IMG/VR virus record: IMGVR_UViG_3300017613_003292
Coordinates: 33,021-97,020 of that record
DNA length: 64,000 nucleotides
Direction: 5' to 3' (one strand)
Origin: a virus
Taxonomy: Duplodnaviria > Heunggongvirae > Uroviricota > Caudoviricetes
This document shows, piece by piece, positions 9,697 to 49,529 of this stretch (position 1 is the stretch's first letter; every line of letters starts with the position of its first letter). Under the pieces are notes generated by a model, which saw nothing but the letters and a program-made list of their open reading frames with translations, was not told the DNA's origin and did not search any database. A program made the position numbers and the translations under genes.

Positions 9697-10293
9697 TTAT
9701 TTTCTTACAAAAAACCACGACCGCACCTCCCTGTGGTTATGGGTAAGATATAAATCCGTGATATGATGACCCTGGCAATAGGCATTGACTGCAAGTATCA
9801 CACCTTGCCTGCACCTGTCTTCATAATCATGCCCCGCGATAATGCCCTGTGGCCTGACCTTTGGTGTCCATTTTACCAGATCCATCATAACATTGTCAAA
9901 ATCATGGAGACCGTCTATGTAAACGAAATCGAGTGTTTCATTATCGAGAAGATCGGCTGCGTCCTGGCTCGGCATTCGCATGTATTTGACATTGTAATCT
10001 TTTAATTTTTCTTGAGTTTCATGAAAAAACCCTTCATTAACCTCTTCTGTAATACGCCTGCCGTATTTCTTCCATGGATCGACGCATGTCAGTTCGATAT
10101 CCGGGATATTTTTACATAATATTTTAGAAAACACTCCCTGTTGCACACCAATTTCGGCCCCCCTTTTTAACCCCTGTTCTCCCATAAATTGAGCCAGAAA
10201 GGATCGATTGCTGCGCTTAAAACCTGTAAATGGTAATACGTCTCTGCTCTTAATTCTGAATGCGCCTCTGATTGCCGTGTCCATTTTACTCAT
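9697..10293 (-). CDS. Class I SAM-dependent methyltransferase (Methyltransf_24/CmcI-like, probable O-methyltransferase)
   Basis: GAEIGVQQG (motif I) and LDFVYIDGLHDFDNV...AGHDY. I placed the start at ATG 10293-10291, which gives an ATGA overlap with the stop of 10290..11198. The ORF track's start at 10368 is an alternative. Confidence 0.55.
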   Translation of the reverse strand: MSKMDTAIRGAFRIKSRDVLPFTGFKRSNRSFLAQFMGEQGLKRGAEIGVQQGVFSKILCKNIPDIELTCVDPWKKYGRRITEEVNEGFFHETQEKLKDYNVKYMRMPSQDAADLLDNETLDFVYIDGLHDFDNVMMDLVKWTPKVRPQGIIAGHDYEDRCRQGVILAVNAYCQGHHITDLYLTHNHREVRSWFFVRK

Positions 10294-25490: not shown

Positions 25491-26687
25491 TTAGAACGCA
25501 GCGAATTTGTCAATTTGAATGGTACAATCGTATGTCGCATGCCTGATGGCCCGCCATCCGATCTCTTCCATGACATCCGCGTCGGCTCCGCCTGCATTTA
25601 TCCCGTCGGATTCAAATTTAATCCTGGGGAATGTAAAAATGTAGGCATTGCCGTAAGTCCCGGTCGCGGTGTCTTCCAGTTTGAATGTAAGGGAAGTTTC
25701 CGTTCCGTCGACGTACTTGTCGTACATATTCTTATCCGTAAAATAGACACTCATGGACCCTGTCACATCAACTTTGCCTGCGCCGATGTCTGCATTCCCA
25801 AGATCTCCAATGCCTTTCTTTCCACGAACATTGTTGGCCAATGTAAAATTAAGACTTCTGATGATGGCCGTTTCATCAGTTGTCATATCGCCTTCCCGGA
25901 TATTAGCACAGTGGCTGACGGCATTGAGCACGTCGTTTGATGCCGCTTCGTCATCGGTTCCAACGGTAGACAGCTTGGTGCCGGATATAATCGTATCTTT
26001 CCCAATGAAATCAAAAGAGACTGTTGAAATCTGTTCAACCTCAACATTAAAAGTCACTGAATTGACGACCATTCCTTTGAAGTGAAAATAGGTAGCCGGA
26101 CTCATGTCTTCATGTGCACGCTGGATCGAATATGACCTTTCCTTTGTGCTGTTTCGAAGACAAGCAGCGTCAATTCTGATTTCATCGCCCTCAGCTTCAT
26201 CGTCAATCGTTTGAGAAACTACAATTCCAGTAGAACTTGTCACACTGGTAATGAAAAAGAATCCATTGTTTGCAGTTTCAGTCGCACCAGAAAGCCGAAC
26301 CCATTGTCCTGTCATAAGACTGGAAAACGGTGTTCCGCCAGATGCTACAATACGACTGCCTGAAGTTTCAAAGGCAATATCCGAGGATGTCGAGTTCGTA
26401 ACAGACCCTTGCCATCCATTGGCTGGTGTGGCCCATAAGGCACCCTGAAAAAATTCGTCATAGGCGTCATAAGACAACTCTCCGTCAAATCCGCCGCTTG
26501 CTTCGGCTGAAACCTGTACTAAATCTGTGGTTTGGCGATCCGATCTCAACTCGTTGGAGACAATATTGGAAATGTTAAACGCAAGGGACTCGCCGGTCAT
26601 ACGCAGATTGTCCATATGCGTGGATGGCGTGGTGCCCCAGGATGTTTCCTTGATGTACTTCAACGAGGTTCTGTTGGTATCACCCAT
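25491..26687 (-). CDS. Major tail (tube) protein (398 aa)
   Basis: Synteny: it is the gene immediately 5' of the chaperone and tape measure pair. Beta-rich, Ser/Thr-rich sequence. Confidence 0.5.
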   Translation of the reverse strand: MGDTNRTSLKYIKETSWGTTPSTHMDNLRMTGESLAFNISNIVSNELRSDRQTTDLVQVSAEASGGFDGELSYDAYDEFFQGALWATPANGWQGSVTNSTSSDIAFETSGSRIVASGGTPFSSLMTGQWVRLSGATETANNGFFFITSVTSSTGIVVSQTIDDEAEGDEIRIDAACLRNSTKERSYSIQRAHEDMSPATYFHFKGMVVNSVTFNVEVEQISTVSFDFIGKDTIISGTKLSTVGTDDEAASNDVLNAVSHCANIREGDMTTDETAIIRSLNFTLANNVRGKKGIGDLGNADIGAGKVDVTGSMSVYFTDKNMYDKYVDGTETSLTFKLEDTATGTYGNAYIFTFPRIKFESDGINAGGADADVMEEIGWRAIRHATYDCTIQIDKFAAF

Positions 26688-26712: not shown

Positions 26713-29532
26713 TCAAGCAACTTGTTGAAATTGATTCTGCCGTATGGTTTCCACCAATGGCATTAAGTCAAGAGCTTTTAACATTGTCTGGACGTCTCCA
26801 CTCATTTTCTGTTGGAATCCGTCTGATGTATGCGGCAAGACCTTTGCAAGCATCTCGTATGCCGCCCTTCCTTCACTCAACGTGAGATGTGTAAAATGAA
26901 AAAGACAGAACGCATAGGCATCCGGTACATACGAATGAATAAAATGAGTACTCAGAGACTGATTCCTCATATCTCCGAATCTCTGGTATGCGTCAATGTA
27001 TTTTCGCGCATAATCAAGAATGGCCTTTCTGTCTTTATCGATGAGTGCCATCTCAGTTGCAGCCAAGAGCAAATCCAGATCGTCTGGCATATCTTCAAGA
27101 CCAAGCTGTAACCATTCTTTGGCCTTATCAAGTTTTCCAACTTGCATGTAGGCCCTGACAGTTGAGTAAAAAACCGATTCATCAAACTTGATATGCTTTA
27201 ATTCATATCGATGTTTAATGTATTCTTCCGAAAATTCTATCTGTTTGTCCACATATCCGCTGTTTCCGTAGATTTGTGACAGATAAAAATAACATTCATA
27301 ATCTTCCGGATCATCTGCAAGCCTTGCATGGAGCAATGAGGATGTCCGTTTAAATTTTCTTTCTTTCATCTCTGGAGATACGTCGTATCCATAATGGATA
27401 TATTCAATCATGTCGCAGAAAATTGCCGGTCCAAAAAATACCGGTACGTTGTGAATCCGTTTGTCGTATTTAATTGTTCCGCGTTTAAAAAGTTTCGGCG
27501 GATTGAACTGAGCGCCCCGCTTGCCGTCCAGAATGTTGACCAGTGTAAATTTAATTGACCGGATATCATTCGGAATGAGTGCAATCCATTTTTTAAAATC
27601 TGATACCATGCCGTTTTTATTCGATAATTCTTCATCTGTATCAATCAGCATGATCCAATCCTTGGTACAGTGTTCAATAGATTCATTCCTGGAATCTGAA
27701 AAATGGTCGGTCCATGGCCGATGATAAATCTTGCAACCATATTCAATGCAAATCTCATCAAAATTATCTGGGGGATCATCTTCGGTACGTGTGTTTAACA
27801 CGACGATTTCATCGGCTATCGGTTTCACCGATGCCAGACATCTCCGTAAATTCAATTCCGGATTTTCTATTTCAGAGGCTCGTGTCATTAGACACACAGA
27901 CAGTGTCTGTGGCTTGGGTTTATTCCTGGCAAGGTTTGTAAAATTATTTGAAGGTGCCTGCGGTGTCTTGACATTGGCTGACTTTTTCTTTTTATTCTTT
28001 TTCTTTTTATTTCTTATCCGTTTCTTTTTTGGTACCTTCTTATCGATTTTTTCTTCATTCTGTCCGCCGATATGTGTAAAAAGTTTCTTATGAGGATCTT
28101 CCTTTATTTCAAGGAGAGATTTTCGACTTCTTAAATGATAGGCATAAAGCCCCTGCATAACAATTGGTTCATACCCTGCATTCACAAGCTTTATGAAATA
28201 ATCATTGTCAACACCGAGAAATTTATTGCTTCGAAATCGAATAGGCGTCCCGAGAAAATTGTGTTCAACAATTTTGTCCCTTTCTTCAAAACCTCCTGCG
28301 TCCTCCCAGGCTTTCTTATTTGTCAGGATAATGACGCCTGAGAATGCATTTCCAAGCGGTTTTGTGGCGGTCTTACTAAAAGGCTTTACCGAAAGACCAT
28401 GTTCCAGATAAAGTTTGTTTGAATAATCACAATGCGCGCGCATGCTGAGAGAGCTGCCGCCGTCCGGTTCTTTAGGTGCATCATGGCAAAGCTGATCGTC
28501 GCACCAAATTTCATTGGTTCGACAGGTAATCCATCCTGCTTTCTCGCCATATTCCCGAATGGCTCCAAGCATCATGTCATACCAGTCTGTTTTTAAAATC
28601 ATGGCATCATGATCAAGAAATAGCACCCATTCATCATATGTGCTGCGTTCCATGGTTTTATTGTATGCCTGTGCCAGATTCCCGGGTTGAAATGGAACAT
28701 TAATGTCAATGGTGGGGTTGCTCGTATTAACGTAAGGTTCCTGCCCTGCTAAAATTAGGCTTCCCCCTCCATCCCGCTGGTTCCCCTGACGGGCCTCTCT
28801 TTTTAAATATCTTGCCTTGATTTCCTCGCCCTTCAATTTTAACCATGTCCGGGTTGCATTTGGCTGGAATATATCGCACAAACTTCCAAAATCAATGCTG
28901 TGGATATCAATGCCGAGCGTCCATAAACGTTGATTGATTACCTTTGAAGAAGATCCTGCCGATGGAATGCATACCTCGCATTCGTTTATGTATTTCATGA
29001 CCTTGGGGAACCACTGCTCCATGGTCAAATGGGCATCACGATTAGGAGTCTGGACATAATAATCAATCGGTCCAAAAATACGTTCCATATCTTTTTTAGG
29101 ACGACAACCAATGTACATTTTCTTTTTTGGTTTTATATAGTTGTCGATAAAATCATCAAAGAGATCAGGTCTGAATGTGATTAAATAGTGAAACAAAACC
29201 GGTGAATAGAATTCAGTTTCTCCGGTTGTCAAGACACTCTCAACCCTGTCGATCAAATCCTTACTTGTCGGGAATGGCGCAAATAGCCCATCTGCCATGC
29301 CTTCTTCCATTGGGTATTCCATGGACAGGCCTTTAAAATAAATTGGATCGCAGATGTTTAAAGCTTTCTTCATATCCTCACCGAGAAATGGCGTATAATG
29401 ATGCCGCCCAGTGTCCCTGCCAGTACACAAATAGATCTCCCCATCACCGAAACGGGTATAAAAAACACGTTTACTGGTGTCCATTTGTTTTTTTAATACT
29501 TCAAGACTTTCTACTGTTGACAATACTTTCAT
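26713..29532 (-). CDS. Multidomain glycosyltransferase (939 aa): N-terminal domain, GT-A domain, Lys-rich linker, second GT2 domain, C-terminal TPR-like repeats
   Basis: FLDHDAMILKTDWYD (DxD), a KKVPKKKRIRNKKKKNKKKKS linker, LSVCLMTRASEIEN...IMLIDTDEEL (GT2 start plus DxD), and a C-terminal helical-repeat region (YECYFYLSQIYGNSGYVDKQIE...). Confidence 0.6.
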   Translation of the reverse strand: MKVLSTVESLEVLKKQMDTSKRVFYTRFGDGEIYLCTGRDTGRHHYTPFLGEDMKKALNICDPIYFKGLSMEYPMEEGMADGLFAPFPTSKDLIDRVESVLTTGETEFYSPVLFHYLITFRPDLFDDFIDNYIKPKKKMYIGCRPKKDMERIFGPIDYYVQTPNRDAHLTMEQWFPKVMKYINECEVCIPSAGSSSKVINQRLWTLGIDIHSIDFGSLCDIFQPNATRTWLKLKGEEIKARYLKREARQGNQRDGGGSLILAGQEPYVNTSNPTIDINVPFQPGNLAQAYNKTMERSTYDEWVLFLDHDAMILKTDWYDMMLGAIREYGEKAGWITCRTNEIWCDDQLCHDAPKEPDGGSSLSMRAHCDYSNKLYLEHGLSVKPFSKTATKPLGNAFSGVIILTNKKAWEDAGGFEERDKIVEHNFLGTPIRFRSNKFLGVDNDYFIKLVNAGYEPIVMQGLYAYHLRSRKSLLEIKEDPHKKLFTHIGGQNEEKIDKKVPKKKRIRNKKKKNKKKKSANVKTPQAPSNNFTNLARNKPKPQTLSVCLMTRASEIENPELNLRRCLASVKPIADEIVVLNTRTEDDPPDNFDEICIEYGCKIYHRPWTDHFSDSRNESIEHCTKDWIMLIDTDEELSNKNGMVSDFKKWIALIPNDIRSIKFTLVNILDGKRGAQFNPPKLFKRGTIKYDKRIHNVPVFFGPAIFCDMIEYIHYGYDVSPEMKERKFKRTSSLLHARLADDPEDYECYFYLSQIYGNSGYVDKQIEFSEEYIKHRYELKHIKFDESVFYSTVRAYMQVGKLDKAKEWLQLGLEDMPDDLDLLLAATEMALIDKDRKAILDYARKYIDAYQRFGDMRNQSLSTHFIHSYVPDAYAFCLFHFTHLTLSEGRAAYEMLAKVLPHTSDGFQQKMSGDVQTMLKALDLMPLVETIRQNQFQQVA

Positions 29533-29550: not shown

Positions 29551-29955
29551 TTAAAAATTTTCATCCCTGAAAAATGGAATTTCTACATTTAATCGATACC
29601 ATCCCTTGTCTTCACCGTAATCATAATACCTTGCAGCCCGGCAATGAACACTCGCACTGGCGATTGTCGTACTTCGAAAAATAGCACTTGCAGCATCTAC
29701 ATTGGCCTTAACAGTCGATAATCCCTGCCCTCCTGGACTGTAAACATCAATGCTGATATATCCAATGTGACGATGTGTGTTCGATGGCGTGCCGATTGTC
29801 ATTTGCGCCACTGCCCCTGGCAGTACCTTGAATTCTACATATGAAACTCCCTGTCTCGGTTTATATGGTATCCCGGAATACTTTATCGGTGTCCTGGAAT
29901 CCCACCTGTTTTTAAAAGTTTCTTCAAGAATTTTATGTTCGTCGGCAAAACTCAT
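29551..29955 (-). CDS. putative tail terminator / tail completion protein (134 aa)
   Basis: Synteny only, between the connector genes and the tail tube. Confidence 0.3.
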   Translation of the reverse strand: MSFADEHKILEETFKNRWDSRTPIKYSGIPYKPRQGVSYVEFKVLPGAVAQMTIGTPSNTHRHIGYISIDVYSPGGQGLSTVKANVDAASAIFRSTTIASASVHCRAARYYDYGEDKGWYRLNVEIPFFRDENF

Positions 29956-31266: not shown

Positions 31267-31814
31267 TACAGTACCCCCTCAAAGATAATACGCCATTTTT
31301 TGTAATTTCTGATTATGTCTGCAATATAATCAGGATTGATGCCTTTGTAATGCTGCAAGATACCAGCACCCACGAGGAACTTTGCGGTCAGTTCACTACA
31401 GACCACTCGACCAAGGGAAATGTTCCTCGCGAGTGGGGGTATCATGAAAAGGAATAAACGGTAGAATGGATAGACATCTTTATAATGTGGTTCAATATTT
31501 TTTTTGCCTGAAATAAATGTGATTGGCGTCATTCCAGTGTGGCGTCCAATCAATACAGGTTTTCCTTTATATGCTTTAAAAATATCTTGATTTTCGACAC
31601 GCCACAAGGATTCCATTGTCGTGCCCCATTTATTTATAATAACACCTGAGTGACTATATTTTGATTCCGCGTCATCTGCCCATATTTTTTGCACAAAATT
31701 AATTGCACGGCCAAGCCACATAGGGTTGGCCGTGCAAAAAATATCGCCAGGACATACGTTTGGGAGTGTTTTATCTTGTATCATGGCATCCCCATAAGAA
31801 GGACTGGGTCGCAC
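31266..31814 (-). CDS. Permuted papain-fold peptidase (YiiX/Peptidase_C92-like, NlpC/P60 superfamily), putative cell-wall hydrolase
   Basis: PGDIFCT...SKYSHSGVII (Ser/His motif) and a catalytic-Cys context VVCSELTAKF. Confidence 0.5.
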   Translation of the reverse strand: MRPSPSYGDAMIQDKTLPNVCPGDIFCTANPMWLGRAINFVQKIWADDAESKYSHSGVIINKWGTTMESLWRVENQDIFKAYKGKPVLIGRHTGMTPITFISGKKNIEPHYKDVYPFYRLFLFMIPPLARNISLGRVVCSELTAKFLVGAGILQHYKGINPDYIADIIRNYKKWRIIFEGVL

Positions 31815-32176
31815 CTGGTTATTCTTAAATGAATGTGAGGAATCATTCCTTTTCCGTATCGTTTTGAGATATCTTGGGCGATGCCGATTATATCCCCTTT
31901 TTCAATTTGAGACCCCACAATTCCTTTTAATGGTCTGAGATAGAAAAGCACGACAGTGATTCTATCCCCTTCTATTTCAAGACCAGAATAATTTTCATGT
32001 GCGTAAGGCCTTGCCTGTCGCGTGACAAGACCGTCAATTGGTGAAAGTACTTTGTGTCCGGGTTTTACAATGAGATCTATACCATCGTGTTTCCTGTCAT
32101 TGCCTCTTGGGGCATTGAACAGCCCAGACCCTTTTACATCGTTCCTAATTTTTCCGCCTGTCGGATTCAACATCAA
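31781..32176 (-). CDS. Peptidase M23 (LytM-type) peptidoglycan endopeptidase
   Basis: HDGIDL (HxxxD), G.V..GD.IG glycine-rich core, and HIHL (HxH). Confidence 0.7.
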   Translation of the reverse strand: MMLNPTGGKIRNDVKGSGLFNAPRGNDRKHDGIDLIVKPGHKVLSPIDGLVTRQARPYAHENYSGLEIEGDRITVVLFYLRPLKGIVGSQIEKGDIIGIAQDISKRYGKGMIPHIHLRITRCDPVLLMGMP

Positions 32177-32433
32177 GGTGCTCCAAGTTTTGCCTTGAGT
32201 AAGAGAAGCGCAATTGCGATAACGGTTGGAATAGATGCCCCGATAAACCCCCAGATTCCAGCTTTTACCTTTATCTCTATAATGTCATCTCTATTTTCTC
32301 TCTGTCGTTTGTCGAGTTCCTTTATTGCATCGCTGTGTCTTTTTAATTCAAAAACAAGCAGACGCTTGTATTCCATGAACTCTCCGTCCAGAGAGTGCAC
32401 ATCTCGCAAGTCCCTGTCAATCTTCGAAATCAT
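32173..32433 (-). CDS. XhlA-like lysis-associated membrane protein (holin-associated)
   Basis: 86 aa: N-terminal coiled-coil (HSDAIKELDKRQRENRDDIIEIKVK), then AGIWGFIGASIPTVIAIALLLL, a C-terminal TM segment typical of the XhlA family. Confidence 0.5.
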   Translation of the reverse strand: MISKIDRDLRDVHSLDGEFMEYKRLLVFELKRHSDAIKELDKRQRENRDDIIEIKVKAGIWGFIGASIPTVIAIALLLLKAKLGAP

Positions 32434-32854
32434 CGCTCATTTCACCAGGCAAATCGGAAGCGTGGGGCACCGTAATACAGATCATTTTGGTGGTCGCTTC
32501 GTTAGTAAATTTGATGGAATGATAAACGCCTTTCGGGACAGACATTGACTCGCCTGCCGAAATGTGAAAAACTTTGCCGCCCATAGAAACATGCATGCTC
32601 CCTTCATAAACAACACATACCTCATACTGAGCATGCGATCTTGGCGATAGTTCTACACCAGGACTCGCAACAATTTCAACACAGCTGACGTTCTGACGTT
32701 TCACAAGATTCCGCACTACTACTGGATCGCCATGGCGGGTATTGATTTTGATATGCTTGTCGCTGGCATGATAAACAAACTGTTTAAAATCCAGTGAGTC
32801 TGAGACTTCTTGAAGCCTTGCGATGTTTGAATCATCAAATAAATGTTCTAACAT
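32417..32854 (-). CDS. Cupin-domain protein (possibly sugar isomerase/epimerase-like)
   Basis: Cupin motif region GGKVFHISAGESMSVPKGVYHSIKF. The functional guess is contextual only. Confidence 0.5.
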   Translation of the reverse strand: MLEHLFDDSNIARLQEVSDSLDFKQFVYHASDKHIKINTRHGDPVVVRNLVKRQNVSCVEIVASPGVELSPRSHAQYEVCVVYEGSMHVSMGGKVFHISAGESMSVPKGVYHSIKFTNEATTKMICITVPHASDLPGEMSDDFED

Positions 32855-33222: not shown

Positions 33223-34413
33223 TTAGACGTCACGCCGTACCACAACCGCAAGGTTGGGATCAAGGCACTTCACGCCGTAGAGAATGTCAAGTGTTACGTT
33301 GACTGTGGCCTTACCATCGTCATACCCGAGACGGGATCTGATGGACAGGCCTGTCCGGGGATCTGTTACGACTGCCATTTTCGCTCCAGCCCCCTCGCCT
33401 ATTTCAGGCAATGGCGCTGTTGCAAATCCGAATGCGTTTTTGTGGAACATTAGGCTCGGATTGTAGGCATCTGCATTGTTGCTTGTCAATGTTTCAATCG
33501 TAACTACAGCACTTGCGCTGTAAGCCTGAGTCAGTTTAGGCCAGATCGGAAGGGTCGCGAATACACCTGCTACAGACGTGGTGTCTGCTGTGACAACATA
33601 TCGCTGAGTACCACCAGCGATAATCAGTGTGTCACCTGCCAGGAGAGTCCTGTTGGTAGCAACCGTGAATGAACATGCGATTGAAGAATCGCCTATGGCT
33701 CCGGCAGTACTTAATGTTCCGGCAGTGTCAGACACAGCAACGGTACCAGCGGTATGCGCAGCATGGGTTTGTTGTACAAAATGTTCCACGCCGAACCGGG
33801 TCCCGAGATGGCCTCTCATTGCCGCTTCTTGTTGAGCCGCTTGTTGGCCAACAATTTGAGCTTGATGGAAAATACCCAGGTTGAGAAATTTTGCCTCAAG
33901 ATAGGAATCGAGGGCAAGGCTGACATCCGATGTCTCCATAATGGCACCGGCATTGTCGCGCAGAATCTTCCTGGCATTGATGATATCCGATGCAGCAGGA
34001 TTCGTACTGGATGCGCAGGCGTAATACCATGGCACATACTTCCGAAGGGCTGTAAGGGACGTCTCAATATCGGACGCCAGAGCATATACGGCTGGCGAAA
34101 TATGTTCAGATATGATCTGTTCTGTGGTGTAAGCCAGTTCCTGATCTGTGAGACCAAAACGGACCTGTTTCCACTGATCGACCGTGATTTGAATGTATTT
34201 TGGGGTGACGTCTTGTGCCGTGGATGTTCCACCTACCGTAGTAGAAAACGTCCCTGGCTGACGGATCTGAATTGTGTCGCCCTTGCGGAAAGATTTCCGC
34301 TCATTATCGTATCCTCTGTGAACACGCTTGGCCATGCCGAGTGCATTCTCCAGAACGATAAGGGCTTCTTGTGCGTAAAAAATTGGTTTATACGCGTCTG
34401 TGTTGTTGGACAT
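33223..34413 (-). CDS. Major capsid protein (HK97-fold type, 396 aa)
   Basis: Gene directly downstream of the scaffold-like gene and diverging from terminase/portal. Size and composition fit. A hairpin follows its stop. No motif-level proof. Confidence 0.55.
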   Translation of the reverse strand: MSNNTDAYKPIFYAQEALIVLENALGMAKRVHRGYDNERKSFRKGDTIQIRQPGTFSTTVGGTSTAQDVTPKYIQITVDQWKQVRFGLTDQELAYTTEQIISEHISPAVYALASDIETSLTALRKYVPWYYACASSTNPAASDIINARKILRDNAGAIMETSDVSLALDSYLEAKFLNLGIFHQAQIVGQQAAQQEAAMRGHLGTRFGVEHFVQQTHAAHTAGTVAVSDTAGTLSTAGAIGDSSIACSFTVATNRTLLAGDTLIIAGGTQRYVVTADTTSVAGVFATLPIWPKLTQAYSASAVVTIETLTSNNADAYNPSLMFHKNAFGFATAPLPEIGEGAGAKMAVVTDPRTGLSIRSRLGYDDGKATVNVTLDILYGVKCLDPNLAVVVRRDV

Positions 34414-37748: not shown

Positions 37749-39317
37749 ATGACAACAGATGCCTATTACGATAAATACAATGAAGAAATTGATGAAAAGA
37801 ATAACATTTATAAAAATAATATTGATGACTGGAAACTTTATGGACTGTCCTATAAAGGCGGAGATGAATTTATTGAATATTCTCTGCATAAACATGATCG
37901 TGAATCATATGCAAACCATGTTGAACGACAAAATGAAGGGATTTGTTTTAATTATTCATCGGCTATTATTGACCTGTTTAATTTTTACCTGACGGAGAAA
38001 CCTTCTTCCAGAGAATTTGAAGCCATTACCTTGCGCGGTCGAAAAAATCCAAAACAGGACTCAGATATAAAGAACCGTATAAAACGATCAATTGGTCAGT
38101 TCGATAAAAAGGATACCCAATGGTTAATGTTTTTACAGGATGCGGATCTACACAACAAAAATTTCGACGTATTTTTGAACCATACCCAAAAAATTGCATC
38201 GATTTATGGCAGTGCCGGTATTTTGATTTCGAAACCAAACGTTTCCTACCAGACCCGGGCCGAAGAGATCAAAAATCGTGTGTACCCTTTTGTAACCGTT
38301 TTTAGACTGCCGGATATTTACGACTGGGAGTTTACAAGAAATATCAATAGCGGTCGGTTTGAGCTGTCTTATCTCAAACTTAAGGAGTCTGATACTGAAT
38401 ATTTAATATGGTTTAAAAGCAAATGGGAGCGTTGGCAAAAAATTGAGAATGAAACAAAACTCATAGATTCTGGCGAAAATCCATTGGGTGAAATTCCATT
38501 CGTTTGGGTTCCTAATATCACAAGCCTCGACAGCTGGTATATCGGTGAATCTGACATAAAAGAGATTAGTCGCATTTCAGCATCAATTATTAGAAACATA
38601 TCCTGCGGTGAAGAAATGCTGAAATTTTGTGGATTTCCAATGCTTGTCCTTCCAAAAGAGGCCGAGGGGTATGACACTGACGACGGAGAAGAAGACCAAC
38701 CTTCCGGCCCACGAGCGGTCCTTGAGAAAGATCCGGAATACGGTACAAATGGATCTCCAGAGTGGCTTGAGCCTCAAATTCTCGATGCTACCGAAGCCAA
38801 CCTTGCGTGGACAGACCGTAAGGTTGATGAAATTTATAGAATTGCACATCTTTCTGGTGTGCACGGTCAAAGAAAATCTAATAATGAGGTTGCATCTGGC
38901 CTTGCTTTGAGGTATGAATTCCAACAGTTAAATTCTGTGCTTCTCCAAAAAGCACAAAATCTTTCAGAGGCTGAATTGCAGGTTATTAAATACTGGCTTA
39001 AATGGCAGAACCATGGCGAGATGATCGATAACATTACTGTAACTCGACCAAAATCTTTTTCAGTCGATGAGCTGGCACTTGACATCGATAACCTTTTCTC
39101 TGCAATTTCAGAAATCCCGAGCGAACATTTTAAGAAACTGGCATTAAAACACATTTCTCTTCAAATGCTGCCTGACATGAAAGACGCTGACATCGAAAAG
39201 GTGACAAAAGAAATTGATAAGAATGCAAAGCTTGACAAACCAGAAGCTCAGAGTGCTTCCCAAAAAAATGATCCCAAAAAAAAGGATGATTTAAAAAAAA
39301 TTGACAAGGAAGAATAA
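37749..39317 (+). CDS. Portal protein (522 aa)
   Basis: Gene immediately after TerL; size and acidic composition fit. Confidence 0.6.
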   Translation: MTTDAYYDKYNEEIDEKNNIYKNNIDDWKLYGLSYKGGDEFIEYSLHKHDRESYANHVERQNEGICFNYSSAIIDLFNFYLTEKPSSREFEAITLRGRKNPKQDSDIKNRIKRSIGQFDKKDTQWLMFLQDADLHNKNFDVFLNHTQKIASIYGSAGILISKPNVSYQTRAEEIKNRVYPFVTVFRLPDIYDWEFTRNINSGRFELSYLKLKESDTEYLIWFKSKWERWQKIENETKLIDSGENPLGEIPFVWVPNITSLDSWYIGESDIKEISRISASIIRNISCGEEMLKFCGFPMLVLPKEAEGYDTDDGEEDQPSGPRAVLEKDPEYGTNGSPEWLEPQILDATEANLAWTDRKVDEIYRIAHLSGVHGQRKSNNEVASGLALRYEFQQLNSVLLQKAQNLSEAELQVIKYWLKWQNHGEMIDNITVTRPKSFSVDELALDIDNLFSAISEIPSEHFKKLALKHISLQMLPDMKDADIEKVTKEIDKNAKLDKPEAQSASQKNDPKKKDDLKKIDKEE

Positions 39318-39988
39318 TGCCAGTCTATCGCGAACAAATCAGGCCATTTATAGAATTAACAGAATGTGAAGATTATCTTGAAATTGGATTTGGAGATGGC
39401 ATTCATTTTAAAAGTGTGCCTGTTGAACAGAAAACCATTATTTCGCCCATTTGTCATGCTACTTATCCTCACCGAGCATACCCAATGGAATCTGACTTGG
39501 CATTTGAATTGGAAGAATTCAAAGACGAAGGTCCGTTTGAGGTAGCTTTTATCGATGGTCTTCACAATTATCCCCAAATTGTTAGGGATTTGCATAATGT
39601 CTTGCCTTATATGACAACTGATGGTGTAATTCTTTGTCATGATATTAATCCATTTGTTATGGATAAAAATATTATCGAACTTGCGACGACGTATCCAAGA
39701 CCGCAAGAGGCTATGGGGTGGCTTGGGGATGCATGGAAAATATTATTCCATGTAAAATATACAATGCCACATCTTGACTATGCCGTTATTTCAGATTTTC
39801 CTGGATTTTTAGTTTTGTGGGAAACAGAATCTGAACGCAAAATTGAATATAAAAAATATGGATCTGATGATCCAGATTATCCATATAAGGATAAAACAAT
39901 TGAATTTGGCATAAAACATCAAAATGAATTTTATTTTGGCACGATTGAAGAGGCTGTAAAGCGATACGAACATTTCTTTATAGGATAA
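39317..39988 (+). CDS. Class I SAM-dependent methyltransferase (Methyltransf_24-like)
   Basis: YLEIGFGDG (motif I) and VAFIDGLHNYPQIVRDL...CHD. Its start overlaps the portal stop. Confidence 0.55.
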   Translation: MPVYREQIRPFIELTECEDYLEIGFGDGIHFKSVPVEQKTIISPICHATYPHRAYPMESDLAFELEEFKDEGPFEVAFIDGLHNYPQIVRDLHNVLPYMTTDGVILCHDINPFVMDKNIIELATTYPRPQEAMGWLGDAWKILFHVKYTMPHLDYAVISDFPGFLVLWETESERKIEYKKYGSDDPDYPYKDKTIEFGIKHQNEFYFGTIEEAVKRYEHFFIG

Positions 39989-39990
39989 AT

Positions 39991-40677
39991 ATGAACTTTT
40001 CTATTCTGCTTCCCACCCGTGGTCGTCCAGACCGCGTTGAAACATTTCTTGATTCAATTGAAGACACAGCTGATAACGTCGATAGAATTGAGGTCGTTAT
40101 ACGGATTGACCGTGATGATGATTTGATGATGCGACATAAATTCAAACCACGGTCTCTTGTATTCAGACTCCTTATCGGCCCAAGAGCCAAATGTCTTTCC
40201 GATTGCTGGAATGAATGCTGGCGACATTCAAAGAATGATATTCTCATGCTCGCCGGTGATGACTTAATTTTCAGAACACCTTTGTGGGATAGTGAAATCC
40301 GTCGTGAAATAAAATCCTTCCCTTATAATATCGGATTAGTATACGGTGCGGATAATAACCCGTATCGCAGAAAAAATGCGACCCATCCTTTTGTTCATAG
40401 AACATGGACGGAACTTGTCGGATACTTTACACCACCCAACCTGGACTATGGTAATGATACATGGCTTGAAATGGTTGCAAAAAAGATAAACCGGATTACA
40501 TTCAGGCCAGACATTTTGATTGAACACATGCATTACCGATATAAAAAACGAAATCGTGACCAGACAGATGTTGATCTTAGAAATAGATATAAGTCCTGGG
40601 GTGGTGGAGAAAAATTCTATACCCTTGAGCATTTAATAGATCATGACGCTGAAAAATTGAAAAGGAGTATTTCGTGA
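39991..40677 (+). CDS. Glycosyltransferase (GT-A fold, GT2-like)
   Basis: FSILLPTRGRPDRVETFLDS is the typical GT2 N-terminus; acidic AGDDLIF. Confidence 0.5.
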   Translation: MNFSILLPTRGRPDRVETFLDSIEDTADNVDRIEVVIRIDRDDDLMMRHKFKPRSLVFRLLIGPRAKCLSDCWNECWRHSKNDILMLAGDDLIFRTPLWDSEIRREIKSFPYNIGLVYGADNNPYRRKNATHPFVHRTWTELVGYFTPPNLDYGNDTWLEMVAKKINRITFRPDILIEHMHYRYKKRNRDQTDVDLRNRYKSWGGGEKFYTLEHLIDHDAEKLKRSIS

Positions 40678-40760
40678 TTTTTTCTATTTTGCTTCCTACC
40701 CGTGGCAGGGGAAAATTTAATGAACTACAAGGGAAAAGAAAGAATAAGAAAGGGATATAA
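40678..40760 (+). pseudogene. Remnant duplicate of a GT N-terminus (IFSILLPTRGRGKFNELQGKRKNKKGI*) in the intergenic spacer
   Basis: ttttctattttgcttcctacccgtggcagggg at 40684-40715 is ~85% identical to 39997-40028 (ttttctattctgcttcccacccgtggtcgtcc). Confidence 0.35.
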
Positions 40761-41750
40761 ATGGATTACGAACCTGATCCTTATGTTTTTAAAAAGGATG
40801 AAACGATAGGCTTTGGTGAAGCACTCTCAACTTCTACATTTAACAATTGGTCACAACTTGTAACCGACAACCCTCCATGGCCGTTTACGGCCAAGGCGAG
40901 GTTCCCTTCATTGGCTGATTTCTCTGCATACCAGGGTCAGATTCCAGAGGGATGTTTGTGCCTCATAGATGGGACAGATATTCCCGACAGATTTAGATTC
41001 TCTGACTATTACTATATTAGAACACTGCTTTATAACGACTATTACTATCAACTTTTTATGTACAAACGGAAGGGTTCAAATGTTAACGTTGAGGTTCCAA
41101 AGATTCCGTTTGGGGATAATGTGAAGTCCTTTTCTATTGCGTTCATGTGTACTGATGACATGCCATATGTAGGACAACTCATTTCTACTGTAAAGTATTA
41201 TCATAATCTAATTTCAATTTCCCTGGATATCAAAGCTGACATAAATGTTGCTTTTTTTGGCGAAAGAATACCATCGGAGATAGAATCAATTTGTAATTAT
41301 AAATTATTCCCATTAGATACTTTTCATATTGCGTATGCTCGCAACTGTAGTATTGATATGTGTAAAAAGCAACATATTTTTATAACTGACATTGATAAGT
41401 TGTTTCCATATGATAGCATGCGGCAAATTATCGAGTACTACCATACACTACCTCACCAGGGCATATTAAATATTAGGCAAAGCCGGTTGGACCCACCAAA
41501 TCTATTTGGAAATCGTTTGGTACTTGAAAGTACTGGTGGTTATTGGGATCTTTTTAGGGCAGGATATTGTGAGGACGATGAGATGCTTATCGAACTGGCA
41601 AGGCAGGGGATAATGCCAGTAGTCATACATGTTCCATATGCCCATGAAAAACATCCTACTTCAAAAAGAACAACCGAGGTTACTTATAATGAGAATAGAA
41701 TGATTCTTCGTAAAATTCTTTTAGATGGACGAGGGTATATTTATAAATAG
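40761..41750 (+). CDS. putative glycosyltransferase-like protein (GT-A-like, 329 aa)
   Basis: IFITDIDKLF (DxD-like) and an FMCTDD segment. It follows the GT N-terminus remnant and may be its decayed partner. Confidence 0.4.
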   Translation: MDYEPDPYVFKKDETIGFGEALSTSTFNNWSQLVTDNPPWPFTAKARFPSLADFSAYQGQIPEGCLCLIDGTDIPDRFRFSDYYYIRTLLYNDYYYQLFMYKRKGSNVNVEVPKIPFGDNVKSFSIAFMCTDDMPYVGQLISTVKYYHNLISISLDIKADINVAFFGERIPSEIESICNYKLFPLDTFHIAYARNCSIDMCKKQHIFITDIDKLFPYDSMRQIIEYYHTLPHQGILNIRQSRLDPPNLFGNRLVLESTGGYWDLFRAGYCEDDEMLIELARQGIMPVVIHVPYAHEKHPTSKRTTEVTYNENRMILRKILLDGRGYIYK

Positions 41751-41759
41751 GGGGTAGTA

Positions 41760-42584
41760 ATGCTTTATGTATATGGAGGGGCTGGGTTTGTAGGAAGAAA
41801 TCTTATAAAAAGAACATCGTATGACGCCGTACCAATTCCAAGAAATCAATATTCTGTGCAATCAAGTAAAACTGATGATATTTTATATCTAATCAGTACT
41901 GTCCACAACTATCACATCCATTCGGATATCCATAAGGACGTCGATGTAAATTTAACTACTTTTCTGACCGTGTTAGATAACGCCAGAAAGAATGGATGTC
42001 GTACCTTCAATTTTATATCTTCCTGGTTTGTGTATGGAGATTGTGAATTACCAGCAACAGAAACAACATATTGCAACCCTAAGGGTTTCTATTCAATAAC
42101 AAAACGTACCGCAGAACAATTATTGATTTCATATTGCGAGACATTCAATATAAATTATAGAATTCTTAGATTGTGTAATGTGTATGGGGAGGATGATGAT
42201 AAGGTTTCGATCCAACGAAATGCGATGCAGTTCCTTATAAAAGAATTGATTGCCGGTAACGATATCAAATTGTATGACGGTGGATCTACAATAAGGGATT
42301 ATATGCATGTTGATGATGTTGCTGATGCTATAGATATTTGTCTTAAGTATGCTCCAATTAATACTGTTGTAAATATCGGAAGTGGTAGGAAGATATTCTT
42401 TAAGGATATCATGAGACAGGCAAAAGAAATTTCTGGTTCAAAGGCTAATATTTTATCTATGGAGCCTACCGATTTCCATAAGGTTAGCGGTGTAAAAGAT
42501 TTTTACATGGATACAACTGTATTGAAAAGTTTGGGGTTTAAACAAAAGATTTCAATCCATGATGGTATTACGAGGCTGCTTTGA
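41760..42584 (+). CDS. NAD-dependent epimerase/dehydratase (extended SDR), sugar-nucleotide modifying
   Basis: GGAGFVGRNL (GxxGxxG) and YSITKRTAE (YxxxK). Confidence 0.7.
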   Translation: MLYVYGGAGFVGRNLIKRTSYDAVPIPRNQYSVQSSKTDDILYLISTVHNYHIHSDIHKDVDVNLTTFLTVLDNARKNGCRTFNFISSWFVYGDCELPATETTYCNPKGFYSITKRTAEQLLISYCETFNINYRILRLCNVYGEDDDKVSIQRNAMQFLIKELIAGNDIKLYDGGSTIRDYMHVDDVADAIDICLKYAPINTVVNIGSGRKIFFKDIMRQAKEISGSKANILSMEPTDFHKVSGVKDFYMDTTVLKSLGFKQKISIHDGITRLL

Positions 42585-43639
42585 AAAAAATAAATCAATA
42601 CACTGAATTCAATTTTGACAATCCGTTCGGAAGCCAGGCAAAGATGTTGTACCATATTGATCGGTTGTTTAGTTATACGAAATGTGGTGATACCTGGCCC
42701 GTCTTTCTTGAGATAAACTTGACTGATACATGCAACCTTTCATGTTCATGGTGCATCTCAGAAAATCGGTTGGACAGCACGATTGATACAAGCAAGTTGA
42801 AAGAATTTTTAAACAGCTTCAAAGAACACGGTGGGAAAGCGGTGACTTTTAGCGGTGGTGGTGAGCCTACACTTCATCCGGATTTCCACGAAATAGTTAC
42901 GCACGCAAGGACTGCCGGACTCGAACTTGGCTTGATGACAAATGGGTTCTTTCCAAAGAAATATATAGATTTGATTGGGAATAATTTTAAGTGGATCAGG
43001 TTTTCTCTTGATACGGTTGATCATGACAAATATAAAAAATGGAAAAATGTAAATGCTGTGTTGACAGTTTTGAACAACATAAGGCTGTTGAGCGAAAAGA
43101 ATGTCAAGGTTGGCGTGAATTGTAATGTTAATGCAGAGATGACCGTTAAGGATGTTTTGGATTTAATAGATACGGTCTCACCTCAATGTAATTATATTCA
43201 ATTCAGACCCGTCCTGCCCAGATATTTCAAAAGAGAAAAATCTGATTTAAATTCATCTGTATGGACTTATCTTCAAAAGAATTTTGTAACCAATCCAAAG
43301 ATAAATTTTAGCTTTGACAAACTGAAGGATGTTATGACTGAGAATTGGTTTCCATTTAATAGTTGTGAAGGTCATTTCTTTTCTCCAGCTTTGAATTCTG
43401 ATGGCAACCTTATGGTTTGCATGTATCATTTTGGAGACGAAAGATTTGCTTTTGGGAATATATATGAATCTGATTTTGGGAATATTTGGAATAGCAGTAG
43501 AAGAAAAAATGTTATACGTTTTATTAGACAGCTGGATTATCGTAACAATTGTCAAGTCTGTTGTAAACTGTGTGAACTGAATAAATTTATCTTTTTCTTA
43601 ACAAACCCAAACAATGATATGGATATTAACTTTTTATAA
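42581..43639 (+). CDS. Radical SAM enzyme (with C-terminal Cys-rich SPASM/twitch-like region)
   Basis: CNLSCSWC (CxxxCxxC) near the N-terminus, a glycine-rich SAM region FSGGGEPTLHP, and additional C-terminal Cys clusters. Confidence 0.7.
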   Translation: MKKINQYTEFNFDNPFGSQAKMLYHIDRLFSYTKCGDTWPVFLEINLTDTCNLSCSWCISENRLDSTIDTSKLKEFLNSFKEHGGKAVTFSGGGEPTLHPDFHEIVTHARTAGLELGLMTNGFFPKKYIDLIGNNFKWIRFSLDTVDHDKYKKWKNVNAVLTVLNNIRLLSEKNVKVGVNCNVNAEMTVKDVLDLIDTVSPQCNYIQFRPVLPRYFKREKSDLNSSVWTYLQKNFVTNPKINFSFDKLKDVMTENWFPFNSCEGHFFSPALNSDGNLMVCMYHFGDERFAFGNIYESDFGNIWNSSRRKNVIRFIRQLDYRNNCQVCCKLCELNKFIFFLTNPNNDMDINFL

Positions 43640-43699
43640 GTCTAATCGATTTCCAAAAAAACGTATGGAAGATATTCAGAAATTAAGGAGTGCTATGGT

Positions 43700-44548
43700 A
43701 TGAAAATTTATGCGGTATATCGTATCCTATACGGAGAAGACTTTGTTGAAGAATCCATATTATCAATTGCAGATTATGTTGATAAAATTTTCGTATTTTA
43801 TGATACAAGGCCTTGGGGCCAGATAATGGAAGTAGAATACATGGGAGATAAAATCGTAATCCCCGAAAAGATAGACAATGTCATGGATAAAATAAAAGGA
43901 ATGAATCATTCAAAAATTGAAATATTGTTTGCACGGTATGAAACGAACAAGAATATCGTTACAAATTATGTCAATGACATAATTCTTCCGAATTATGATG
44001 CACCAGATGTAATATGGTTTATTGAACCGGATCATGTTATCCATGAAAAAACCGGACCAAAAATATTAGATAGCATTAAACAAAATGAAATAAACCAAAA
44101 ATATAATTGCATGTTTACAAAACAACATGAAATTTGGCGAGGTTTCCGACATGAAGTCTATCCTGAAAGAAAGAGACGCCTTTCTACTGTTATATGGCAT
44201 TTAAATTCACTACGAGACAAAAAAATGCCAGAGACCGGTAGACATGCTGATGCCAAAAATAAAAAAATAGATACTACCTTTCTCGAACACAAAATTCATA
44301 ACTATGGCTTTGCCGTTTCTGAAAAAACAATGTATTGGAAACATATCATTACAATTGGTTTTTCGAGATACATAGGTGATGCAATGCCGAATATTTCATG
44401 GTATAATGAAAAATGGCTTAAGTGGGACTATAAAACAAATAATGACTGCCTTGAAATTTCTAAAGGAAGAGAATGCAATATAAAAACAACGGTTCCATAT
44501 GATATAAACGGCCATCCCTCACTAATGAAAAACTTTACTAGGGAATAA
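43700..44548 (+). CDS. hypothetical protein, possible GT-A-like glycosyltransferase (282 aa)
   Basis: Context plus an IWFIEPDH acidic motif; weak. Confidence 0.35.
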   Translation: MKIYAVYRILYGEDFVEESILSIADYVDKIFVFYDTRPWGQIMEVEYMGDKIVIPEKIDNVMDKIKGMNHSKIEILFARYETNKNIVTNYVNDIILPNYDAPDVIWFIEPDHVIHEKTGPKILDSIKQNEINQKYNCMFTKQHEIWRGFRHEVYPERKRRLSTVIWHLNSLRDKKMPETGRHADAKNKKIDTTFLEHKIHNYGFAVSEKTMYWKHIITIGFSRYIGDAMPNISWYNEKWLKWDYKTNNDCLEISKGRECNIKTTVPYDINGHPSLMKNFTRE

Positions 44549-45094
44549 ATGAACAAAAAAGAACATGTGGAACAACTTATCGGATTTGAATATAAAGGAA
44601 TACCAGTATCACAACAGAAGGCGTCCATCCCTCTCATAGTAAATATTGTCACTGAATTTAATATTAAAAATATCATTGAACTCGGAACTTTGTATGGCGG
44701 ATCGTCTGTAATATTAAAAGACAGTTGCCCAGATATAAATTTATATACTTTTGATAAAAAAGATTTAAGACATAACATCGTAAAGAAAAGAAAAGATATT
44801 ATATTTTACAAAGAAGACATCCTTAAAAAAGATCAACCAAGCCCAAATGTAATAAAATTGCTTGAATATCCAGAACCAGCAATTTTGTTTTGTGACAATG
44901 GAAATAAAAAAGAAGAAGTCAGAACATATACAAAATATTTAAAACATAGAGATATAATTGGCATGCATGATTGGGGAACAGAGATATTCTTGGAAGACAT
45001 CTCTGATATAATTGATAGGTATCAATTACATCCAATACATAAAAATATTTTCAAAACTAATGGCTTTCTTGTTAGATTTTTTCAAAAAAAATAA
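44549..45094 (+). CDS. putative SAM-dependent methyltransferase (181 aa)
   Basis: IIELGTLYGGSS (motif I-like) ... MHDWG; ATGA overlap with the upstream gene. Confidence 0.4.
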   Translation: MNKKEHVEQLIGFEYKGIPVSQQKASIPLIVNIVTEFNIKNIIELGTLYGGSSVILKDSCPDINLYTFDKKDLRHNIVKKRKDIIFYKEDILKKDQPSPNVIKLLEYPEPAILFCDNGNKKEEVRTYTKYLKHRDIIGMHDWGTEIFLEDISDIIDRYQLHPIHKNIFKTNGFLVRFFQKK

Positions 45095-45139
45095 ACCACA
45101 AGAAGTATTGAGCTTCAATAAAAAAAGGGAGACTTTATT

Positions 45140-48251: not shown

Positions 48252-48269
48252 GTTCGTAGGTTTCCTTCT

Positions 48270-49262: not shown

Positions 49263-49277
49263 AATATATCTCCAGAA

Positions 49278-49529
49278 TTACATTGACCCGAGAACTATTT
49301 CTATGTCGATTCGATTTTCTTCTTCATCTATGATGAAGTTGCCTTCCAGTCGAACGCCATTTTTTTTGTAAAAATTATCCAGCAGGGTCATAAAACTTTC
49401 TTGGATTTTTGTTACGTCTTCCCGGATTTTATCGCCGGGACGAATTTGTTTTTCAGACAAGGAATTCATGGTGCGCCTCGCTCCATCTAATAAAAGCTTT
49501 GGTTTGCTGAACGTCCGAATCATGTTCAA
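49278..49529 (-). CDS. hypothetical small protein (83 aa; overlaps the MoxR 3' end by 77 nt, so the start is uncertain)
   Basis: ORF only. Confidence 0.25.
   Translation of the reverse strand: MNMIRTFSKPKLLLDGARRTMNSLSEKQIRPGDKIREDVTKIQESFMTLLDNFYKKNGVRLEGNFIIDEEENRIDIEIVLGSM

Follow-up and report, generated by a model that had tools for sequence, protein, structure and literature searches.

To our knowledge, mycobacteriophages are the only phages in which phage-encoded enzymes have been shown to glycosylate virion proteins; there the glycans shield the particles from antibodies. According to two reports which cite Freeman et al. 2023, these phages glycosylate both capsid and tail tube with enzymes of their own (PMC12363180, PMC12619734), and both kinds of subunit carry their glycans on a C-terminal tail (PMC12619734). 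By analogy this is probably the closest system in function to the one described here, which centres on a tri-domain glycosyltransferase gene (tri-GT; 26713..29532, minus strand, ATG start) encoding 939 amino acids (aa). The gene lies in a stretch of 64,000 nucleotides (nt) from a tailed phage (IMG/VR record IMGVR_UViG_3300017613_003292, positions 33,021 to 97,020), which is called the window throughout and to which coordinates refer; about 33 kb of the 97-kb parent contig lies outside it. We consider, with modest confidence, that tri-GT most likely belongs to a phage kit which glycosylates the phage's own virion structural proteins. Virion-protein glycosylation is the best reading because of the family affinities of the enzyme, its position in the structural module and the Corndog-like position of a second sugar cassette, taken together.

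In the mycobacteriophage systems (Che8 gp108-110, Corndog gp35-38 and Myrna) phage glycosyltransferases (GTs) are accompanied by a methyltransferase, as in the window. The Corndog methyltransferase and GT cassette (gp34-38 order) stands in the structural operon, and a cluster of sugar genes in the window is found at the same place, the stop codon of the portal gene, Corndog gp34 being what we take to be the portal. The mycobacteriophage enzymes differ in being separate and small, with no three-domain fusion, and in coming from a different phage lineage, and the tube and capsid proteins of the window are without the glycan-bearing C-terminal tails. When the tri-GT domains and the sugar-cluster proteins were compared with Che8 gp108-110 and Corndog gp36-38 by BLASTP, no match was better than E 0.057, and hhalign comparison with the mycobacteriophage enzymes gave probabilities of 3.8% and 0.2%. 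A match of the window tube protein to Che8 gp109 (E 0.002 over 42 residues) was set aside as a chance match.

Individual parts of tri-GT resemble enzymes known from elsewhere. SunS and ThuS (PDB 7msn, 7msp, 7msk) are cytoplasmic enzymes which act directly on a polypeptide and in which, as in tri-GT, a GT2-family GT-A domain is followed by a helical domain resembling tetratricopeptide repeats (TPR); SunS is encoded by the SPbeta prophage. GmaR of Listeria transfers N-acetylglucosamine to flagellin, a filament subunit, and its TPR region has been proposed to recognise the substrate (PMC9638930). In Streptococcus parasanguinis, dGT1 combines a GT-D with a GT-A domain and lengthens the O-glycan carried by Fap1, a serine-rich adhesin (PMC5063993). 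By predicted fold and sequence affinity, tri-GT appears to join these two known solutions in one polypeptide, a GT-A+TPR module of the SunS/GmaR type and a GT-D + GT-A extender of the dGT1 type. The chlorovirus PBCV-1 encodes in A064R a three-domain cytoplasmic enzyme which helps to build the glycan of the capsid protein. The two proteins are likened by description only, as virus-encoded multi-domain GTs for a virion protein (a role that is conditional for tri-GT), and A064R differs in belonging to a eukaryotic giant virus and in the folds and order of its domains. A relative of tri-GT consisting of GT-D, GT-A and methyltransferase (P0011) has a layout similar to the GT-GT-methyltransferase arrangement of A064R.

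Domain organization of the enzyme

The tri-GT open reading frame (ORF) is real, and its start codon is right because eight full-length homologues align from the first residue. These eight sequences, 37-49% identical to the window protein, formed the family alignment used below as well as the alignment behind an AlphaFold model (mean predicted local distance difference test score, pLDDT, 67), which served for fold assignment only. The product is predicted to carry three GT domains in the order GT-D, GT-A and GT-A+TPR. An initial annotation of this DNA had recognised two GT-A domains from the strings FLDHDAM and IDTDEEL; both strings are present and their DxD residues are invariant in the family, and the two GT-A domains are confirmed; a third catalytic domain, the GT-D at aa 1-250, had been overlooked.

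The first domain (aa 1-250; 28783..29532, -) was assigned to the GT-D (DUF1792) fold, with a R-F-G-D30-G-E32 'DxE' metal motif, by Foldseek and by Pfam matches across the family. Four of the eight homologues matched Pfam GT-D (DUF1792, PF08759; best E 3e-9) and the GT-D-like model PF22882 was matched among them too; the tri-GT query alone gave no GT-D Pfam match at E <= 10, and a profile search of domain 1 against the PDB returned 4pfx at E 0.09, a marginal score. With Foldseek, the solved DUF1792 structures 4pfx, 4phr and 5v4a were found at E 6e-7 to 5e-6 with probability 1.0 and a template modelling (TM) score, normalised to the target, of 0.53-0.57, the model being moderately confident in this region. 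The profile alignment lays RFGDGE on VRFGDGE of 4pfx, which holds the metal-binding DxE; R27, G29 and D30 do not vary within the family, and only E or D is found at position 32. In dGT1 (DUF1792/GT-D plus the GT-A domain CgT; PDB 4pfx, 5hea) the GT-D likewise precedes the GT-A from N- to C-terminus and the DxE is kept, with marginal sequence similarity (profile E ~0.09). The substrate of dGT1 is a serine-rich repeat protein, and the window also encodes one, here called (SESP)n (11263..14010, -), which may have a corresponding role as substrate. Loci of serine-rich-repeat adhesins hold an accessory Sec system and a GtfA/B (Gtf1/2) initiating pair; unlike in dGT1 loci, neither was found among the annotated window ORFs.

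The second domain (aa 272-470; 28123..28719, -) was recognised as a GT-A fold from weak matches to Pfam GT2 and to phrog glycosyltransferase families and from the AlphaFold model, which gives it a beta/alpha GT-A core. The Pfam GT2 match in the query is weak and covers about aa 285-326. FLDHDAM corresponds to aa 304-310, and D307-H-D309 is invariant across the eight homologues. A Lys-rich disordered linker follows (aa 471-540; 27913..28122, -; pLDDT 23-31), within which the poly-Lys segment spans aa ~495-530 (window ~27940..28050; pLDDT < 35) and a 15-nt tandem repeat at 27982-28011 codes for the Lys run. The poly-Lys linker had been noted before and is indeed real and disordered; it is variable, being a gap in five of the eight homologues and present in only two to three. 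Lys-rich runs also change place within the family: two homologues have them as a linker between domains and two others (P0006, P0008) as a tail at the C-terminus. They could be flexible linkers or binders of DNA or of acidic protein surfaces.

The third domain begins with a GT-A (GT2) catalytic part related to SunS, ThuS and GmaR (aa 541-718; 27379..27912, -), in which Pfam GT2 (PF00535) covers aa 559-637 with 55.9 bits against a gathering cut-off of 23.3. All eight family members match PF00535 (best E 1e-26), and the D631-x-D633-E-E motif, within IDTDEEL at aa 630-636, is invariant and aligns with the DxD of SunS (WIYFIDADN in SunS, WIMLIDTDEE in tri-GT). The remainder (aa 719-939; 26716..27378, -) is modelled as all-helical, with about ten helices at pLDDT 75-92, and is presumably the module that recognises the acceptor. 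TPR models of Pfam score below cut-off in the query, while TPR_19 and TPR_14 match five of the eight family members (best E 1e-6), and the two parts together align with full-length SunS and ThuS over about 400 columns (Foldseek E 2e-15). The earlier description of this region as TPR-like is thus borne out. The expectation that it is directed at protein substrates is supported in that the only characterised members of the group, SunS/ThuS and GmaR, glycosylate peptides or proteins.

SunS (E 1e-13), GmaR (E 6e-12, aa 545-735) and ThuS (E 1e-7) were the only sequence relatives of domain 3 in the PDB with E < 0.01 by phmmer. The sole NCBIfam match of tri-GT was the SunS family (TIGR04195), with 49.4 bits against a curated cut-off of 350; given that distance, the domain-3 module is a relative and not a member of the family. 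Identity to SunS and ThuS is only about 20-25%. GmaR (PDB 22ao) shares with domain 3 the order of a GT2 domain followed by TPR repeats, and differs from tri-GT in having an anti-repressor domain, a thermosensor role and a single catalytic domain. No membrane segment was found in tri-GT (highest 19-residue Kyte-Doolittle mean 1.09), and the product is predicted to be soluble and cytoplasmic.

Gene position, distribution and the associated sugar genes

With respect to its surroundings, tri-GT is embedded in the late structural genes. Its upstream neighbour is the tail terminator gene (29551..29955, -; phrog_179 E 8e-17, PF13554 E 1e-10) and its downstream neighbour the major tail tube gene (25491..26687, -; 398 aa, Phage_tube_2 type, PF18906 E 1e-51), one candidate acceptor, whose cultured relatives bear the tail tube annotation. 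The intergenic gaps are 18 bp on the terminator side and 25 bp on the tube side. Tail assembly chaperones and then a 1,953-aa ORF at the tape-measure position follow the tube gene; a head-tail adaptor, a head-closure gene and a P22-type coat protein lie further upstream of the terminator. The phage is of a lineage with P22-type coat and T5-type tube, distantly akin to Nanhaivirus.

A promoter scan around tri-GT gave promoter-like sites no more often than expected by chance, and a terminator scan gave 24 sites against ~11 expected, none convincing on the coding strand at gene junctions; as the scans found nothing convincing, there is no evidence for a separate tri-GT transcription unit. Its guanine+cytosine content (GC; 0.41) and codon usage are like those of the core structural genes, and tri-GT is therefore no recent arrival. 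The tube gene has a perfect ribosome-binding site, AAGGAGGT, as does the capsid gene, and that of tri-GT is weak, which would fit an enzyme made in lower amounts than the structural proteins.

The same position is occupied by related genes in other phages. In nine distinct loci (the window, L001, L002/3, L100, L004, L101, L005, L006 and L025) the three-domain gene stands shortly before the gene for the tube, and a terminator gene precedes it in every locus where a terminator was detected. The position next to the tube is kept across phages only 33-47% identical, and the slot is often shared with sugar-tailoring genes, namely those for an S-adenosylmethionine (SAM) methyltransferase, a hexapeptide acyltransferase, a radical SAM/SPASM enzyme and a GT4 enzyme. 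In relatives without the enzyme, whose tubes are 40-45% identical, the terminator abuts the tube gene; relatives without tri-GT include L019-22, with a capsid protein 58% identical to that of the window, and the cultured Nanhaivirus phages Pan1 and R5C. tri-GT is an accessory insertion into a conserved terminator/tube junction, in agreement with the initial annotation, which had seen it as inserted beside tail completion or terminator genes and the tube gene.

The three-domain fusion is rare, with 12 homologues returned from 5.8 billion proteins and about four full-length fusions among 1.84 billion cluster representatives, and the stand-alone GT2-TPR module is very common, with 6,736 of those representatives matching at E < 1e-30. 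GT2-TPR-only variants occur within the window's own clade, after the capsid region in L009 and L012 and between terminator and tube in L015. Among the closest relatives of domain 3 that stand alone, three were examined, and two of these belong to structural modules of other phage lineages: one follows a capsid gene (L072:3808-5025), and one, in a lambda-like phage, lies among tail genes beside a hexapeptide acyltransferase and before a presumed chaperone and the tape measure (L074:8001-9215). The third (L073) is in a cluster of GT, methyltransferase and sulfotransferase genes. An HK97-type siphophage has a further fusion with a GT-D domain (L038) between its connector and tail genes. Among cellular proteins, the GT-D domain is closest to enzymes that stand alone in GT/methyltransferase clusters of bacteria, mostly Bacteroidota. 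In a search of viral structures, GT2-TPR-like folds and other multi-domain GTs were found in many uncultured phages and in giant viruses, all of them uncharacterised.

A second set of sugar genes begins at the portal stop codon (39317..46474, +). This post-portal cluster comprises eight genes, in order a Methyltransf_24 methyltransferase, a small GT2 enzyme, a protein of no assigned function, a short-chain dehydrogenase/reductase (SDR)-type epimerase/dehydratase, a radical SAM/SPASM enzyme, a second protein of no assigned function, a weakly matching CmcI-like methyltransferase and a nucleotide-sugar 6-dehydrogenase. At 0.28-0.40 its GC is lower than in the core genes, a sign that the cluster may have been acquired separately. 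In P0011 a GT-D + GT-A pair like that of tri-GT is fused to a homologue of the post-portal methyltransferase (31% identity), a fusion which, from its sequence, appears to link the cluster to tri-GT, and radical SAM/SPASM enzymes recur beside tri-GT relatives (L004, L025, L040). A cupin of 145 aa, encoded between the capsid and adaptor genes (32417..32854, -; Cupin_2 E 1e-10, with weak matches to mannose-6-phosphate isomerase), may be a sugar isomerase or epimerase, and its membership of the sugar system is uncertain. A counterpart of the cupin was not detected in L001. Also between the capsid and head-tail adaptor genes is a gene for an M23-peptidase-like protein (31781..32176, -), which is kept in L001.

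Candidate acceptors among the virion proteins

The most obvious candidate for an O-glycosylation acceptor in the window is the (SESP)n protein, a 915-aa product of the tail module, recognised from its composition. About 800 aa of it are repeats, with short non-repeat segments at the N-terminus, in the middle and at the C-terminus; Ser accounts for 410 residues (45%), Pro for 21% and Glu for 14%. Across the 122 SESP units the first two codon positions are all but constant and the third varies freely, and both TCN and AGY codons are used for Ser, so that the frame is under selection at the protein level. The start of the gene overlaps the stop of the upstream tail gene. The product looks like a mucin-like or serine-rich-repeat virion protein and, judged by its composition, is a candidate far more obvious as an O-glycosylation substrate than the tube. 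On the strand opposite the repeat gene, an ORF of 873 aa (11297..13918, +) was rejected as an artefact of the repeats, the codon-position analysis backing the minus-strand frame; several shorter ORFs in other frames over the repeat gene are artefacts of the same kind. The interval of 12-14 kb is GC-rich and GC-skewed, owing to the Ser, Pro and Glu codons.

The repeat gene is accompanied by enzymes resembling polypeptide N-acetylgalactosamine (GalNAc)-transferases (GT27). The larger has 546 aa (7388..9028, -) and was assigned by phmmer, AlphaFold and Foldseek; it holds D83-A-H85 (DxH), a Gal/GalNAc-T-like motif and the Mn-binding H245, and phmmer against the PDB returned GalNAc-T2, T10, T1 and T9 at E 3e-6. 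In its AlphaFold model (pLDDT 90.5) the 39 best Foldseek matches in the PDB were all polypeptide GalNAc-transferases (best E 7e-15). It also holds a four-Cys insertion and a second domain with an invariant E-H-D. Directly after the repeat gene stands a 302-aa GT-A protein (10290..11198, -), by sequence comparison a paralogue of the N-terminal domain of the 546-aa enzyme (KVDAHC, WYAHW). Both proteins share with the animal and apicomplexan GT27 enzymes the DxH, the Gal/GalNAc-T motif and the third Mn-binding residue, a His; the phage enzymes differ in being cytoplasmic, without a lectin domain and with the four-Cys insertion and an unrelated C-terminal domain, and their genes adjoin a mucin-like Ser/Pro repeat gene. 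The cassette further contains a 223-aa Methyltransf_24-like protein (9697..10368, -), which tblastn places on a Pfam-annotated Methyltransf_24 gene of L073 and whose homologue in L078 overlaps a match to the post-portal methyltransferase, and, between the two GT27-like genes, a 224-aa protein recognised as an ORF and without assigned function (9021..9695, -). Both of these proteins are kept in related cassettes of other contigs.

Six other viral contigs also have SESP-repeat genes with these GT genes after them, five of the six with the methyltransferase-like gene as well; the 517-aa gene upstream of the SESP repeat was detected in only one of them, L089. The repeat protein of L089 shares a 44-aa N-terminus with that of the window at 75% identity, and a GT-A+GT-D fusion is inserted in its SESP cassette, the GT-D being 37% identical to that of tri-GT (E 9e-51). 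In L082 (560-3256) the SESP repeats are fused to a C-terminal domain like those of the window tail proteins 3654..5336 and 5329..6786, which suggests that SESP repeats are part of virion fibre proteins. L077 and L080 (one 56.6-kb contig) come from a related phage which, with L082, has at least five SESP-repeat ORFs in one phage. In L014 (20-4611), a relative without tri-GT, a GT27-like and methyltransferase cassette is found in the head module, directly upstream of the adaptor gene; the GT27-like cassettes thus shift between slots of the structural operon. The 546-aa family has more than 5,400 metagenomic homologues, and the top 120 are nearly all 50-66% identical and mostly full length. Among cultured phages no match whatever was found for the 517-aa and 546-aa tail-module proteins, and in the literature, of which our coverage was incomplete, neither a phage tail protein with serine-rich repeats nor a GT27-like enzyme of a phage was found described.

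It is possible, if improbable on balance, that tri-GT acts mainly on this protein, extending chains after initiation by the GT27-like enzymes and so producing a mucin-like tail fibre. The 410 Ser residues of the array make a classic O-glycosylation substrate, the GT27-like genes adjoin it, the GT-D + GT-A pair of tri-GT matches that of dGT1, itself an extender on a serine-rich repeat protein, the orthologous cassette of L089 holds its own GT-A+GT-D insertion, and the L082 fusion to a tail-protein domain again suggests a virion fibre. The repeat gene is, however, 12.7 kb from tri-GT, with dedicated GTs right beside it, and the contigs that bear the repeats do not appear in the set with GT-D relatives. 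A search around the 344-aa tail protein, made for co-occurrence of tri-GT and (SESP)n, found nothing; the remaining tri-GT contigs are all <= 26 kb and end at or just past the tape-measure gene, too short to show any repeat protein. If the GT27-like enzymes initiate, moreover, the TPR module is left without an obvious role.

It is rather doubtful that the specific target of tri-GT is the adjacent tail tube, perhaps along with the capsid, and that the tail would so gain a sugar coat like that of mycobacteriophages. In its favour are the place of the three-domain gene just upstream of the tube in nine of nine loci and the GT2-TPR copies between terminator and tube in L015 and among tail genes in L074, together with two precedents, that of GmaR, which modifies a polymerising filament subunit, and that of the mycobacteriophages, which glycosylate tube and capsid; the tube also has an insertion of ~90 aa, rich in Ser, Thr and Ala and probably surface-exposed. 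The initial annotation had taken the Ser/Thr-rich tube as evidence for the acceptor, and this argument fails: Ser+Thr make up 21% of the window tube, within the range of 17-26% in 22 relatives, with no difference between tubes with and without the enzyme, and the insertion is the same in relatives without it. Cys content of the tube did not differ between the two groups either, and in the tube and capsid alignments no column or feature tracked the presence of the enzyme. Tube C388 was tried as a marker, being present in 9 of 10 phages with the GT and in 2 of 13 others (five confirmed without the GT and eight of unclear GT status), and was rejected, since its distribution mirrors the phylogeny and the residue belongs to a terminal strand that is conserved. 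The initial annotation had named absence of the enzyme from related phages with identical tail proteins as counting against its hypothesis; absence was found where tubes are 40-45% identical, and no relative with an identical tube was found. The GT2-TPR stand-alone copies adjoin capsid genes in some phages and tail genes in others, those of L009, L012 and L072 standing after the capsid gene and away from the tube. Adjacency is the only specific evidence for the tube as acceptor, and in the late operon of a phage it is a weak guide to what an enzyme acts on. Overall, the view of a multi-GT protein with a TPR tail at the junction has held, its tube-specific evidence has not, and the (SESP)n protein and the wider kit had been overlooked.

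Several observations weigh against virion-protein glycosylation as a whole. As described above, the Ser+Thr comparison and the tube and capsid alignments are flat, and a Ser/Thr-rich C-terminal tail is absent from both proteins, the tube ending in ...IQIDKFAAF and the capsid in ...VVRRDV. The (SESP)n protein always has its own adjacent GT enzymes and its repeats occur on long contigs where no GT-D relative was detected, and on both grounds it has no need of tri-GT. The GT-D fold is not specific to protein glycans, since its cellular relatives stand alone in bacterial glycan clusters, and one GT-D relative (L040) lies beside the DNA-metabolism genes for uracil-DNA glycosylase (UDG) and primase. 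Cultured phages yielded no nucleotide match and no protein matches to tri-GT better than the SunS level, and the confidence of the tri-GT AlphaFold model is only moderate, as its mean pLDDT shows.

With these points set against it, glycosylation of virion proteins is still the reading we prefer, and within it we give the repeat protein on the one hand and the tube or capsid on the other roughly equal weight. From the domain architecture, the conserved catalytic motifs, the gene position and the co-occurring sugar genes, all of which are observed, we infer the activity of tri-GT, the order of its steps, its donor sugars and its acceptor as follows. Made from the late structural operon, the enzyme would build short glycans on phage structural proteins before or during assembly. 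The C-terminal GT-A+TPR module would first recognise the protein acceptor through its helical repeat domain, and domain 3 would put the first sugar on Ser, Thr or possibly Cys or, alternatively, would act on a residue already primed by the GalNAc-transferase-like enzymes. The N-terminal GT-D and the central GT-A, the same domain pair as in streptococcal dGT1, would then extend the glycan, and the dehydrogenase, epimerase/dehydratase, methyltransferases and radical SAM enzyme of the post-portal cluster would provide donors and tailoring.

A phage mucin is a more specific form of this proposal, and one that we put forward tentatively: the GT27-like enzymes may start, and tri-GT may extend, O-glycans on (SESP)n in the cytoplasm, giving a densely glycosylated brush or fibre on the virion. 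If true, bacterial viruses would have their first mucin-type glycoprotein system, virion glycosylation would for the first time be seen beyond the actinobacteriophages, and tri-GT would be a single-polypeptide glycan assembly line fed by phage-made nucleotide sugars. The locus suggests that unrelated environmental phages reached virion glycosylation by different enzymes, and the abundance of the GT27-like family indicates that the wider phenomenon may be common though the three-domain fusion is rare. Confirmation would extend phage glycobiology beyond Actinobacteria and offer a compact cytoplasmic protein-glycosylation enzyme for glyco-engineering. It would also raise the question of what a sugar coat does outside an animal host, be it adhesion to exopolymers, protection from proteases and grazers, or masking from host defences.

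Acceptors outside the virion and other features of the window

Prophage enzymes such as TarP or Gtr modify glycans of the host envelope, and tri-GT might likewise modify an O-antigen, teichoic acid, capsule or S-layer, blocking superinfection or keeping progeny from sticking to debris. We think this unlikely. Foldseek did return weak matches (E ~1e-6) to the teichoic-acid enzymes TarP and TarS and to RmlT, the cellular GT-D relatives belong to bacterial glycan clusters, and the PHROGs class of the matching families is 'moron / host takeover'. At the sequence level, however, the relatives are protein and peptide GTs and not teichoic-acid enzymes; the gene sits within the late structural operon, at gaps of 18-25 bp, which is not the place of a lysogeny gene or moron; neither an integrase nor a flippase was found among the annotated window ORFs; and a tube-side position kept across such divergent phages would be hard to explain by a function directed at the host.

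Little credence is given to the idea that tri-GT glycosylates phage DNA at hypermodified bases, with the Lys-rich segment aiding DNA binding. Phage GT-A enzymes can hypermodify DNA with glycans, and the genes of DNA-modifying GTs usually cluster with those for thymidylate-synthase-like, 5mYOX/TET and C5-methyltransferase enzymes (bioRxiv 10.1101/2023.12.21.572611). None of these three was found among the scanned window ORFs, the ~33 kb of the parent contig outside the window not being covered by the scan. Lys-rich segments recur in the tri-GT family and the GT-D relative L040 neighbours UDG and primase genes, but the segment is missing in most homologues, and the TPR module and the affinity to SunS and GmaR point to protein acceptors.

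It is very improbable that tri-GT matures a glycocin-type bacteriocin, as SunS does in the SPbeta prophage, for although SunS and ThuS are its best sequence and fold matches and small ORFs (67-72 aa) follow the gene in two relatives, those ORFs are not conserved, the score of 49 bits is far from the SunS-family cut-off of 350, the 25 bp between tri-GT and tube leave no room for a precursor peptide, no gene for an ABC transporter or thiol-disulfide oxidoreductase is nearby, and in place of the precursor, exporter and disulfide-bond genes that adjoin SunS and ThuS the module is fused to two more GT domains in a virion structural operon, between terminator and tube.

Signals of the host conflict. 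The GT-D relatives are Bacteroidota-like, and Bacteroidota make little use of Shine-Dalgarno sites; in the window, strong Shine-Dalgarno sites (AGGAGGT) stand upstream of 33223..34413, 25491..26687 and 37749..39317, highly expressed genes that include those for capsid and tube. Elsewhere in the window, a DUF2201 metallopeptidase/VWA protein is encoded two genes from an AAA ATPase, with an SPFH/Band-7 protein nearby (46956..50457, -; 53805..55259, -), and no link between these genes and those for glycosylation is evident. Four tRNA genes (His-GTG, Pro-TGG, Gln-TTG and Met-CAT; 53643..60089, -) are scattered among small early genes.

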